This document shows positions 29,268-43,314 of a DNA stretch of 64,000 nt, piece after piece. Made by a program: the position numbers and the translations under genes. Origin of the DNA: Clostridiales bacterium (GTDB lineage Bacteria > Bacillota > Clostridia > Peptostreptococcales > NVVX01); NCBI GenBank assembly GCA_021129775.1, contig JAJOKP010000067.1:2794-66793 (forward strand). Reading direction: 5' to 3'. The notes below the pieces were generated by a model. That model saw only the letters and a list, made by a program, of their open reading frames with translations, ran no database searches and was not told where the DNA came from. How positions within the stretch are numbered: position 1 is the first letter of the stretch; each line of letters opens with the position of its first letter.

Positions 29268-29297
29268 AATACGAGTCATTATGTGTATGGGTGTATG

Positions 29298-29369
29298 GGG
29301 TCAGGGTTGAAAAGTTGAATTGGTCTTAATATTTATTTGATTCTAGCTCAATTCAACTTTTCAACCCTG
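29298..29369. mobile_element. 72-bp non-autonomous miniature copy of the RAYT-like element at 42182-43145
   Basis: gggtcagggttgaaaagttgaatt is identical to 42182-42205; ctcaattcaacttttcaaccctg is identical to 43119-43141. Confidence 0.85.
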
Positions 29370-30049
29370 TGATAGACTTTGTTATAGCAATCTATGCATT
29401 ATTCAGATATCATAAAGATAAAAGACTAGCTAGTAAAAGTCAATAGAAAAAACAAAAAAATATAAAGAAAATTCTTTGATAAAAAAACACAGCAAACAAG
29501 CCAACTCCAAACCCGAACATTAGCAATATACGAATGTATAGATTGATTCAAAATCAAGCGACTAAAGTTAGCATAGAACTATGTTTTTTATAATGTTCAT
29601 CTGGACTCCTAAGAACAAAAGGTTTATTGTCTCTAAGTACAGCAAAAATTATGTTGCAAATCTTGTTCATAACAGCGTCGAGAGCAACCATTTTAGGCTT
29701 AGACAGCTTCTTTTTGTTTTTAGCACAGGATTGTTAGGAGTACCGGTTTTAGAGCCTCTAACAGAAGCTAAAGCGACTATGAAAAGAACTCTCCTAGCCA
29801 GTCTAGAACCACGTTTAGACATGGAAACCTTAGTGCATTTAAACTTGCCAGATTCTTTTACAGCTGGGTCAAGACCAAAGTAAGCATACAACTGTTTAGG
29901 CTTCATAAAGGCTGAAAAATCACTAATCTCGCACATTAGTGTAACAGCGGAAGTGAACTCGTCAAGCTACGCTGAACATCGGGGAATCAGATGGGATTCT
30001 ACCCCACCTGATTGATAGTTCCCACTTAAAGAAGTGGGAGTCTTAACTC

Positions 30050-31963
30050 GTGTGCCTGGCATGGGTGCAATCTATAGGGTGAAAGTCCTGAACGCTGAAG
30101 GTGACGTAAGCGCTAGCCAAGAGCAAGGGTGTCGTGGGCGACTGCGAATCTGAAGGAAGCTTGATGAGCAAATTTCCGGTCTGAGGTACACGAATCACAT
30201 TTGAGGCTACTATGGTTGGATGAGTTTGCGAGTCAAAACGAAGTCCAGTCACACGAAAAGCTATAGGAGTAAATGTGGCAGATATGTGGAAAGAAAGATT
30301 GCAGTCTTACCCGGGGAGATCTAATGGATACGTTGTAGGGATGATAATTCTATATAACAACCTATGCAGTGATGCATAGCTGAATCATCAGAAGTCAGCC
30401 GAAATCATACTACTAGGAGGATTTAATATCTCCTAGGAAGGACTGAACATTAAGGAGGTTAGTAGATTTGAATAATTCAACGAACATGGAAAGAAAACAG
30501 AAAACTTCATACGAAGGCTGTCTTGGTAAAATAGAGTTGGATACTCGAAATAAACAAGAAGTGTTTAGTGATTCGGTGGCATTATCCAAAAAGAAAGCCA
30601 AATCAAAAATCGATACTGAATTTTTACTTGAGAGAATCGTAGCGAGGAGAAATCTCTATGAAGCATACAAGCAAGTAAAAAGAAATAGAGGTAGCCATGG
30701 AGTAGACAAAATGAAAGTAGAAGAACTACTACCTTATTTGAAAAGCCATGCTACTAATCTAATAGAAAGTCTGTTAAATGGAACGTATAAACCTAAACCA
30801 GTACGAAGAATCGAAATACCAAAACCTGATGGTGGAATAAGACTATTAGGAATCCCTACAGTTATTGACAGGATGATACAACAAGCGATTACTAGAGAAT
30901 TAAATGGAATATTTGAGCCAATATTTTCAGAGAATAGCTTTGGATTTAGACCGAAGAGAAGTTGTCATATGGCACTTAAGAAATCCAAAGAATTCATAGA
31001 AAGCGGCTACAAAATAGTGGTTGATATAGACTTAGAAAAATTCTTTGACCGTGTAAATCACGACATCCTTATGAACAGGATTGCTAAAAGAGTAAGAGAT
31101 AAGCGAGTATTAAAACTTATACGACTATATCTTTACTCGGGTATCATGCAAAACGGGATAGTAGTTAAAAGTGAAGAAGGAACAGTCCAAGGCGGACCAA
31201 TAAGTCCACTTCTTAGTAACATACTTTTGGACGGTTTAGATAAAGAACTTGAGAAACGAGGGCATAAATATGTAAGGTACGCGGATGGTTGTAATATCTA
31301 CCTCAAAAGTAGAAGAGCAGGGGAACGTGTACTAAAGAGCATAACTAAATTTCTTGAGAGAAAACTAAAACTAAAAGTAAATGAAAAGAAGAGTGCAGTG
31401 GACGCTCCAACAAAGAGAAAATTCCTAGAGGATAGCTTTTACTACAGTAGAGGTGGTATTAGATTCAGAGTACATAAAGGTAGCTTGGAGAAATTCAAAA
31501 GAAAAATCAAAGGGATTACAAACAGAAATGTTAGTATGCACTTTGACTATCGAATTAAGAAACTAAGTGAAGTTATAATAGGATGGGTAAACTATTACAA
31601 ACTAGCAGACATGAAAACAAGACTCAAGGAATTAGACGAGTGGATTCGCAGGAGACTAAGAGCTTGCATTTGGAAAACTTGGAAGAAGGTTAGAACCAGA
31701 TTTAAAAACCTAAAGAAATTAGGTCTAGACAAATGCCGAGCATGGCAATACGCGAATACCAGAAAAGGCTACTGGAGGATGTCCAACAGCCCAGTCTTAA
31801 ATAGAACCATAACGAATGACAAACTAATTCGGCGTGGTTTTAAGAGTCTATCTTCTCAGTATCAGAAAATAAGATTGTCTTAATGAACCGCCGAGTACGG
31901 AACCGTACGCTCTGGTGGTGTGAGAGGACGGTAATTAAATTAATTAATTACCTCCTACTCGAT
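30050..31963 (+). mobile_element. Group IIC intron
   Basis: 5' GTGTGCCTGGCATGGGTG just after a hairpin (tcccactt/aagtggga). Short DV gaaccgccgagtacggaaccgtacg..ggtggtgtgagagg; DVI ends cctactcgat; RT ORF has no endonuclease domain. Confidence 0.9.
30468..31883 (+). CDS. ltrA: Group II intron reverse transcriptase/maturase, probably RT-dead
   Basis: IPKPDGGIRLLGIP, SFGFRP, DIDLEKFFD, QGGPISPLL, GWVNYY; catalytic motif is YADG instead of YADD. Confidence 0.9.
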   Translation: MNNSTNMERKQKTSYEGCLGKIELDTRNKQEVFSDSVALSKKKAKSKIDTEFLLERIVARRNLYEAYKQVKRNRGSHGVDKMKVEELLPYLKSHATNLIESLLNGTYKPKPVRRIEIPKPDGGIRLLGIPTVIDRMIQQAITRELNGIFEPIFSENSFGFRPKRSCHMALKKSKEFIESGYKIVVDIDLEKFFDRVNHDILMNRIAKRVRDKRVLKLIRLYLYSGIMQNGIVVKSEEGTVQGGPISPLLSNILLDGLDKELEKRGHKYVRYADGCNIYLKSRRAGERVLKSITKFLERKLKLKVNEKKSAVDAPTKRKFLEDSFYYSRGGIRFRVHKGSLEKFKRKIKGITNRNVSMHFDYRIKKLSEVIIGWVNYYKLADMKTRLKELDEWIRRRLRACIWKTWKKVRTRFKNLKKLGLDKCRAWQYANTRKGYWRMSNSPVLNRTITNDKLIRRGFKSLSSQYQKIRLS

Positions 31964-32706
31964 TGAAACACAAAGGACGGATAAAGCCAATACCTTTGAT
32001 TGAATCGAGCAAGTGAATTTGTTTAATGAAAGTATGTTTTTCAAATTTCAGAGTATATTCTTTGATGCTAGTGAGTATAGAATCAATCTTACTACTAAAG
32101 ATTTCAATGAACTCAATATGCATTTGAATGAGCTCAAAAACAGACTCTAAATAGTGCCCAAAAGACTTTGAGAGTTTTGCAGATTCTATTAGCTTAGAAT
32201 ACTTCTCATTAGCATATTTTAGCCCTTTACGTGAAGTTAGAGCAATAAGTGATATTACTTCGCCTTTTGGTGCAGCTAGTATATTGTCGGGCGTTTTAAA
32301 AGTCTTAAGAATTAAAAGAGATGTTTTTCCTGTGAGAGAAGCAAACACTTTGATATAACCAGGAAAAACCAACCTAAGAGCCTTGTGTAGCTTGTTTACA
32401 TACTTGGTTTTAGCATCTGTAAGATTATAATATTCTCTTACAAAAGAACGCAGATTAAGCACAAGATCAGTTGGGATTAAAGAAACCTTTAAAGGCTTCG
32501 CCCTAGGAGATGACCATTTTTCTACTTATTCAGTTATAGAATAAAATAAAAACTGACTGGTGTCTATACCGGATTTTATTATTAAGCTTTTAAGATATGA
32601 ATCCGAACTATGAATATTATTAACAATCAATCGTTCGGACAAGAAACTCAATAACAAAAGAAAAGATGTAACTTTATGTTACAAATATATTGTATTAGGA
32701 GATACC

Positions 32707-34248: not shown

Positions 34249-35686
<1,438 letters not shown>

Positions 35687-42181: not shown

Positions 42182-43145
42182 GGGTCAGGGTTGAAAAGTT
42201 GAATTAAAGTGATATGCTGAGAGTAGGGGATGAAAGATGCCAAGAAAACCAAGAATTCATTACGAAGGAGCTCTGTATCATGTGATAGTGAGAGGAAATA
42301 ATAGATTTGAAGTGTTTGAAACTAAGGAAAATAAAGCGGAATATTTAAAGCTGATTAAAAAATATAAGAGCAAATATGGTTTTAAACTATATGCATATTG
42401 TGTAATGGATAATCATGCACATCTCCTGATAGAAGTAGATAAAATTCCATTATCAAAAATTATGCAATTAATACAGCAGGTTTATACTCAGCATTACAAT
42501 CTAGATTATAAAAGAACAGGGCATGTTTTTGAACAGAGGTATAAGGCAATTATATGCGATAAGAATAGTTATTTATTAAACCTTATTAGATATATTCATA
42601 TGAATCCTGTTAAAGCCAATATAGGCGAAGGGTTAGAATATAAATGGAGCAGTCATAGTGCATATATTAAGCAAAACAGCGAAATGATTGATTGTGAATT
42701 TCCATTATCTTTGTTTACTGCTAGTAAAAACAAAAGACAAAAGTTATATTTGAGATTTGTAACAGAAGATGAAACTGATGAATTAGAGGATTATGAACTA
42801 TCCGAAGAACAGACTGAGACACGTATTAATTTCGGATGCAAAGAAAGAACATTACAGATGGGTTTAGATGAGATAATTAACAAAACCATAAATTATTTTG
42901 AGTTTACAGAAGAAGCGTTAAAATCGAAAAAGAGAAATAAGGAGATAAGTAGAGCACGAAGGGTAATTATAATACTTGCTAGGAAATATACAAAAGAATC
43001 TAGCATATCGATTGGTAAAGCAATTGGCGTCACAAAATCGTTAGTTAGTAAAGTTGATATACATTTACTTAAGACTGATGAAGAATTAAATATAGTATAC
43101 AATCTAATAGACAACAAACTCAATTCAACTTTTCAACCCTGACCC
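42182..43145 (+). mobile_element. RAYT-like HUH element with perfect 24-bp terminal inverted repeats
   Basis: gggtcagggttgaaaagttgaatt (42182-42205) and aattcaacttttcaaccctgaccc (43122-43145); the ORF stop codon lies inside the right repeat. Confidence 0.8.
42237..43142 (+). CDS. REP-associated tyrosine (Y1 HUH) transposase with C-terminal DnaA/TrpR-like HTH
   Basis: YHVIVRGNNR, YCVMDNHAHLL (HUH), GHVFEQRY, RYIHMNPVKA, YKWSSH; C-terminal SRARRVIIILAR..IGKAIG. Confidence 0.88.
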   Translation: MPRKPRIHYEGALYHVIVRGNNRFEVFETKENKAEYLKLIKKYKSKYGFKLYAYCVMDNHAHLLIEVDKIPLSKIMQLIQQVYTQHYNLDYKRTGHVFEQRYKAIICDKNSYLLNLIRYIHMNPVKANIGEGLEYKWSSHSAYIKQNSEMIDCEFPLSLFTASKNKRQKLYLRFVTEDETDELEDYELSEEQTETRINFGCKERTLQMGLDEIINKTINYFEFTEEALKSKKRNKEISRARRVIIILARKYTKESSISIGKAIGVTKSLVSKVDIHLLKTDEELNIVYNLIDNKLNSTFQP

Positions 43146-43314
43146 CCTCCTGACCCTGACCCCCCTCTTGACCCATATTGCAAAGAAAAACTATGATGAA
43201 GTGCAGGTAGTCCGGCGGGAGTGTGAAGTATCTAGAAGAAGAATAATGAAAACCCATATTTTGTTAGCTAAACTAGGGTAGTCTAAATTGTTATTATGAA
43301 AAGGGGAACGAGAA

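Follow-up and report, generated by a model that had tools for sequence, protein, structure and literature searches.

A group IIC intron beside the left-end hairpin of an IS200/IS605-type mini-element nested in a decayed IS110 element

How does a group II intron come to lie within the end of another mobile element? This question is raised by a 64,000-nt stretch of DNA from a Clostridiales bacterium (contig JAJOKP010000067.1 of assembly GCA_021129775.1), here called the window, to whose numbering all coordinates refer unless a contig or locus is named. In the window, a group IIC intron interrupts a gene-less mini-element of the IS200/IS605 type, which in turn interrupts an insertion sequence (IS) of the IS110 family. 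An earlier interpretation of the letters alone (the sequence-only reading) held that the intron had used the hairpin of the mini-element as its landing pad, and might then be carried as cargo by the transposase TnpA acting in trans. Here, we compared the locus with the genome holding the window (G000; 161 contigs, 86.8% complete), with a same-genus genome (G001), and with wider genome, metagenome and sequencing-run collections. We conclude, with a probability of roughly 0.78, that an intron whose exon-binding site 1 (EBS1) reads GAGU reached the left-end hairpin of the mini-element once, by ordinary IIC retrohoming, and that the nest is now stranded.

The nest itself is confirmed. In silico excision of 29953-31980 opens an IS110 transposase frame, ...KGIGFISAVTLMCEI..., which reads GIGFISAVTLMCEI across the junction and contains zero duplicated bases. 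The 2,028-bp insert consists of the intron, beginning with GTGTG and ending with ...CTCGAT, together with 97 bp on one side and 17 bp on the other; joined on the minus strand, these two flanks make a 114-bp unit that is preceded by TTTAT and terminates GAGTTCAC at 29953. The uninterrupted insertion site is present in an intact IS110 of G001 (88% identical), and in a contig of run X1 (~90% alike), which connects 29952 directly to 31981. The restored frame and the empty sites confirm the insert without duplication that had been described from the letters, and its three levels are borne out by the boundaries, the empty IS110 sites and the empty mini-element copies: intron-free units exist, TTTAT-like motifs precede them, and the intact IS110 lacks the flanking bases. 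Two of the earlier measures had to be amended. The nest does lie inside the IS110, which had been placed at 29423..32497, but the true far end is at ~32701 by alignment to the intact G001 copy; and the length of 114 bp holds for the window copy, which is one base short, but not for the empty copies, which measure 115-116 bp. On their sequence, all three layers, namely the intron, the right end of the mini-element and the IS110, are decayed.

When the joined unit was compared by BLAST with the 161 contigs of G000, the search yielded one filled copy and three full-length intron-free copies (97.4, 96.6 and 95.7% identical), the latter preceded by TTTAT, CTTAT and TTTAT, respectively. A right-end pattern search extended the family in G000 to 16 copies including the filled one. 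One of the 15 others has no left end, and the remaining 14, with subfamily boundaries read by eye, follow TTTAT (10 copies), TTGAT (2), CTTAT (1) or TTAAT (1). The empty copies end in TTCAC and show no target duplication. The base 3′ of the element is T in 35 of 36 catalogued copies; judged by the empty IS110 site, it is part of the target. Outside G000, the right-end pattern was found in both same-genus genomes and in genome G541 (4 of 401 genomes of the order, counting G000), the joined unit matched 2 other genomes among 399 scored genomes of the class (2 further genomes were unscored), and a family variant with a different right hairpin, in which the predicted guide GATG is kept, occurs in genome G344. 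The 16 copies, the TTAT flank, the TTCAC end and the absence of duplication thus uphold the proposal of a dispersed IS200/IS605-type mini-element. By its sequence, the unit is a gene-less element of the kind known as PATE (palindrome-associated transposable element). Its many near-identical dispersed copies imply past movement, and TnpA in trans was presumably the mover of the empty ones.

At one locus of G344 (L082:1492-1602, G344:C1), the 5′ part of an open reading frame (ORF) for a SpoIVB peptidase (Pfam S55, PDZ) contains a 111-bp mini-element variant, which keeps the frame and adds 37 codons and no stop. Related extra sequence of ~50-330 bp is found in the loop of the left hairpin at various sites, on G000 contigs C9, C13, C17 (at 22967), C23, C31 and C107 and in loci L063 and L094.

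The intron has the characters of class IIC: ribozyme domains, a reverse transcriptase (RT)/maturase free of endonuclease, a stem-loop 5′ of the insertion, and a 4-bp pairing between EBS1 and the intron-binding site 1 (IBS1). Pieces of domains I-IV were detected by Rfam; domain V is short and carries the CGC triad that marks IIC introns, domain VI folds and ends in AY, and the intron start is of the GUGYG type. Pfam matched the RT ORF to RVT_1 and GIIM only, with no endonuclease domain match. The RT of the window intron, which lies antisense to the IS110, has the catalytic motif YADG (31278-31289) instead of YADD, most aligned relatives having (Y/F)ADD; it reads FLEDSFY where relatives mostly read FLG(Y/F)SFY; and all five strain variants listed in the ORF alter the amino acid. 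The RT is likely inactive, as had been suspected from the letters. No relatives of the RT were found in the viral contigs.

The target recognition of IIC introns involves a stem, a short spacer, the 4-bp IBS1 and IBS3, in this order, in the accessible text of PMC10190682. On the plus strand of the window, the left hairpin of the mini-element is followed by a 10-nt gap and then by the intron, and EBS1 GAGU pairs at 4 of 4 positions with the IBS1 ACTC. A second copy in G000, on contig C4 (G000:C4:20156-20466, L049), is a 311-bp 5′ fragment with 94.5% identity that lies behind a terminator-like hairpin. Its EBS1 TAAA likewise pairs 4/4 with the exon end TTTA, while the crossed pairs between the window and C4 reach 1/4. 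In a 91% identical copy in G001, EBS1 TATT faces the flank GATA. Across 26 distinct intron sites, 80 of 104 EBS1-IBS1 positions pair, against a mean of 43 and a maximum of 61 in 10,000 shuffles, a statistic that is overstated since the sites are related by kinship. The position of the stem-loop and the exact EBS1-IBS1 match, which the sequence-only reading had not seen, bear out its claim that the mini-element hairpin served as landing pad. In locus L060:1-810 (G001:C36), an internally deleted intron copy of 91% identity lies behind a non-terminator hairpin, and is interrupted at the RT catalytic motif by an apparent further group II intron.

The strand on which the hairpin is presented can also be read. 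The G-rich strand is taken as the lagging-strand template, and in all four intron copies or fragments checked in G000 the sense strand is the G-rich strand. Five of the 16 mini-element copies present their bottom strand as the G-rich strand, and among these five only the filled copy combines an uninterrupted hairpin with ACTC; in the other four, the left end is of a different kind, the hairpin loop holds a 54-nt insert, or IBS1 is altered. The filled copy is the only fully matching site in the right orientation, as retrohoming predicts, although the numbers are small.

Ordinary retrohoming would have proceeded as follows. TnpA in trans would have pasted the mini-element after TTTAT in the IS110. 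Later, the ribonucleoprotein of the intron would have recognised the left hairpin on the lagging-strand template, EBS1 would have paired with ACTC, and the intron would have reverse-spliced into the left linker. An intron between the left cleavage site and the guide would, by our prediction, cripple that end instead of turning into its cargo. We infer both this order of events and the loss of mobility.

Retrohoming by a GAGU lineage specialised on this mini-element family, which spread among its copies and of which the window holds the last survivor, appears unlikely. Such a lineage would have found targets: several members of the family retain the hairpin and the site ACTC followed by T, and a relaxed pattern for this site matched 10 times. 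A related IIC intron in genome G493 moreover provides a second dispersed hairpin with a matched EBS1: its insertion point is precisely the tip of a GTAG-type hairpin (L169:1450-1510; G493:C35:56798-56830), which we take to be a repetitive extragenic palindrome (REP) and which has 10 copies in that genome, and its EBS1 GTAG matches the IBS1 CTAC. However, only one mini-element copy is filled, and among 48 5′ exons from related introns (one row is misplaced), 43 are T-rich and resemble terminators, that of the window being the only IS605 end. Seven matches to the GAGU loop in the metagenome collection comprised three unrelated IIC introns and four chance matches, and the single readable flank of the unrelated introns, only 9 nt long, ends in ATTC. 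A G001 contig that holds both an IS110 and an intron turned out to carry two separate insertions. The clade thus appears able to reach dispersed non-terminator hairpins via EBS1 changes, in two unrelated single cases and not as a specialised lineage.

The transport of the intron by TnpA, as proposed in the sequence-only reading, would require that TnpA in trans peeled off the intron and mini-element as one single-stranded 2,028-bp unit and pasted it into the IS110; we consider this quite improbable. It would account for the absence of a duplication and for the intact state of the two outer ends, the two predicted guides and the TTTAT flank, and family members with 50-330 bp extra in the left hairpin loop occur at several sites. 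The guides were predicted from IS608, in which guide position 4 pairs with the last base of the cleavage site, a rule that fits both pairs of that element. These pairs are the guide AAAG reading TTAC and the guide GAAT reading TCAA, the first two guide positions forming crossed pairs, in the accessible part of PMC5934647. Applied to the mini-element, the rule requires AAxA for TTAT and GAxG for TCAC, and AAGA (left) and GATG (right) were found at the feet of the hairpins. AAGA is present in 33 of 36 catalogued copies, though the search pattern itself required a guide-like word. A private change in the window copy disrupts one pair of the right hairpin (29976-29962).

The geometry of the left end argues against such transport. 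Rather than falling between the end hairpins, the intron splits the left-end linker, leaving 17 nt on the side of the cleavage site and 5 nt on that of the guide. The distance from cleavage site to guide is thereby 1,936 nt in the filled copy versus 22 nt in the empty ones, and 15 TTAT sites (5 of them TTTAT), the closest at 30344 and 30354, are nearer to the guide than the true cleavage site. The left linker of IS608 is 19 nt long, and a linker of 27 nt works while those of 4-11 nt fail, with no case near 2 kb in the accessible text of PMC3597680.

A source of TnpA with matching ends was also looked for. Two coding elements share the left hairpin in their left ends, a TTTAT-flanked tnpB element of G541 (22 of 23 bases) and a tnpA-tnpB element of G344 (over 18 bases), but no coding element with the right end of the mini-element came up: there were 0 matches in viral contigs and 0 in plasmids, and no tnpB stood upstream in the 12 loci inspected. 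Locus L159 of G344 was considered as an autonomous parent, but its content is tRNAs between two mini-elements. G000, at its 86.8% completeness, has no detected tnpB gene and no cognate tnpA with matching ends; among its six Y1_Tnp matches, one is an IS200/IS605-type tnpA, whose left hairpin differs from that of the mini-element, and the longer ones look like RAYT types. That sole tnpA (G000:C37:14960-16300, L001) is open and is followed by a frameshifted tnpB-like remnant. An omega-RNA was not matched by Rfam within the unit.

Copy number points the same way. One of the 16 mini-elements of G000 is filled, and BLAST revealed no second filled copy there; the metagenome collection gave 0 junction-pattern matches, and a relaxed junction pattern in 401 genomes of the phylum gave the window and three terminator-like sites in 3 of the 400 others. 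Ten of 16 sequencing runs listed, from 4 studies, contain the stretch or part of it; six were examined, the best possibly being the window's own sample, and X9 was too shallow for a copy test. In X1, X2 and X3, a single unbranched contig spans the intron 3′ end, the 17 bp and the IS110, with intron versus flank depths of 27.7 versus 24-26, 8.7 versus 7-8.6, and 16.6 versus 14.6-16.6, respectively. Taken together, the split left end, the one filled copy and the failure to find a tnpA with matching ends do not support the intron as TnpA cargo.

Several observations weigh against a single ordinary retrohoming event. The runs examined yielded no IS110 allele that held an empty mini-element, which is also what joint transport would leave, so the order of insertion can only be deduced. 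A long linker is not proven to be fatal for TnpA: the Geobacillus enzyme accepted an alternative right boundary and its spacing was called flexible (bioRxiv 10.1101/2023.03.14.532601), although this flexibility concerns the right end only. The single filled copy in X1-X3 is no proof, since contigs lose rare variants, and G000 is incomplete and assembles repeats poorly. The mini-element shows no clear strand bias, its top strand being G-rich in 11 of 16 copies in G000 and in 9 of 21 short loci of relatives. Finally, the TAAA form of EBS1 is missing from the contigs of four runs that do contain the C4 flanks, and the contig shared over 30140-30285 in these runs has roughly the summed depth; either conversion of the segment in the strain or bubble removal by the assembler may explain the missing form. 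Retrohoming with a poorly matching EBS1, followed by the rise of the full match through mutation or exchange between copies, is very improbable. Such an exchange is possible, since some 8 of the 17 changes that separate the window intron from the C4 copy fall within the 35 nt surrounding EBS1 and, as the runs hint, the C4 fragment may carry the window sequence over 30140-30285; but drift would seldom yield all four pairs (1 in 256 for a random 4-mer), and selection for splicing is not apparent for an antisense intron in a dead IS.

With ordinary retrohoming as the preferred explanation, the locus can be placed among known systems. IIC introns have been described at terminators and at the bottom strands of integron attC sites in the accessible text of PMC4424553, PMC3898094, PMC7923331, PMC8643678 and PMC10190682. 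The window intron resembles them in its short ribozyme, its endonuclease-free RT/maturase, its 4-bp EBS1-IBS1 pairing and its site a few bases 3′ of a stem-loop and, like the IIC-attC introns as far as those texts describe them, its target is a recombination hairpin that belongs to a different element and is used on the bottom strand. It differs in that its stem-loop is an IS200/IS605-type left-end hairpin without a T tract, and in its EBS1 GAGU. No description of IIC introns in IS200/IS605 ends was found in the literature searched, which mostly excluded subscription papers and supplementary target tables.

PATEs are gene-less IS200/IS605 elements (PMC7290912; bioRxiv 10.1101/2023.03.14.532601, accessible parts), and the accessible part of the latter gives TTTAT and TTCAC as motifs of Geobacillus IS605 elements, among which gene-less PATEs occur. 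The mini-element is similar in having hairpin ends only, a TTTAT target, a TTCAC end, no duplication and many dispersed copies; unlike the PATEs described, it is ~115 bp long, has no Rfam match, did not lead to any tnpB-bearing parent with its right end, and holds an intron in the left end of one copy. IStrons combine a group I intron with IS200/IS605 or IS607 and form families of mobile elements, whose ends coincide with the splice sites, the whole insertion being lost on splicing (PMC4227781, accessible text). Like them, the nest combines a self-splicing intron and IS605-type ends, stands behind a T-rich pentanucleotide and shows no duplication. The analogy that had been drawn to IStrons is nevertheless not supported: the splice sites of the window intron lie 17 and 97 bp inside the ends, so the mini-element would remain after splicing; the intron occupies the opposite strand, no IS gene is present, and there is only one copy.

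The locus would thus be a clean natural case of a IIC intron that, with four changed EBS1 bases, reaches a non-terminator hairpin, here an IS200/IS605-type left end, and the G493 relative does likewise at the tip of the presumed REP. This widens the target list of IIC introns beyond terminators and attC, and suggests that such introns are able to disable the substrates of HUH transposases. The locus is also a natural test of the reach of TnpA between guide and cleavage site; if TnpA had carried the intron after all, this would be a new, DNA-based route of spread for an RT-dead group II intron and a group II counterpart of the IStrons.

The coordinates of the features are collected in Table 1. 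The 3′ part of the IS110 corresponds to the Transposase_20 region, and its stop codon ends at 29554. Relative to the intact G001 copy, which has both DEDD_Tnp_IS110 and Transposase_20 in Pfam, the window IS110 retains Transposase_20 only: 538 bp between two 11-bp repeats (repeat at 32483-32493), comprising the DEDD-coding region and a portion of the non-coding end, are lost, and a 10-bp deletion near 29715 shifts the frame. Judging from these two deletions, the IS110 is dead independently of the nest.

Table 1. Features of the nested locus (window coordinates)
Feature	Position	Strand	Basis or remark
IS110-family element, 3′ part	29423..29952	-	Pfam PF02371; alignment to intact G001 copy
Mini-element, right end	29953..29980	-	Predicted guide GATG (29980-29977), hairpin 29976-29962, terminal TTCAC (29957-29953)
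Mini-element, inner hairpin	29987..30011	-	Sequence
Mini-element, left-end hairpin, probable landing stem-loop	30020..30039		Ends 10 nt before the intron on the + strand
Mini-element, predicted left guide AAGA, foot of left-end hairpin	30041..30044	-	Fits IS608 pairing pattern (PMC5934647, accessible part)
IBS1 (ACTC), 3′-terminal tetranucleotide of the 5′ exon	30046..30049	+	Sequence comparison
Group IIC intron, 1,914 bp	30050..31963	+	Rfam RF02001, RF01998; domain V/VI fold
EBS1 (GAGT), loop of the Id3 stem	30230..30233	+	Rfam, sequence comparison
RT/maturase ORF, 471 aa	30468..31883	+	Pfam RVT_1, GIIM
Mini-element, outer 17 bp of left-end linker (intron 3′ exon)	31964..31980	-	Sequence, BLAST
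Target motif TTTAT, left cleavage site, part of IS110	31981..31985	-	Sequence; same motif before 10 of 14 other left-ended copies
IS110-family element, 5′ part	31981..32701	-	Alignment to intact G001 copy

In the neighbourhood, a REP-like inverted repeat at 29290-29380, whose core has 11 occurrences in the genome, adjoins the IS110; this repeat also flanks a long RAYT-type Y1_Tnp gene at ~42190-43150. On the minus strand, 34249-35686 holds the fragments of a split ABC-F gene (ABC_tran and Xtn pieces) and a C-terminal piece of RF3.

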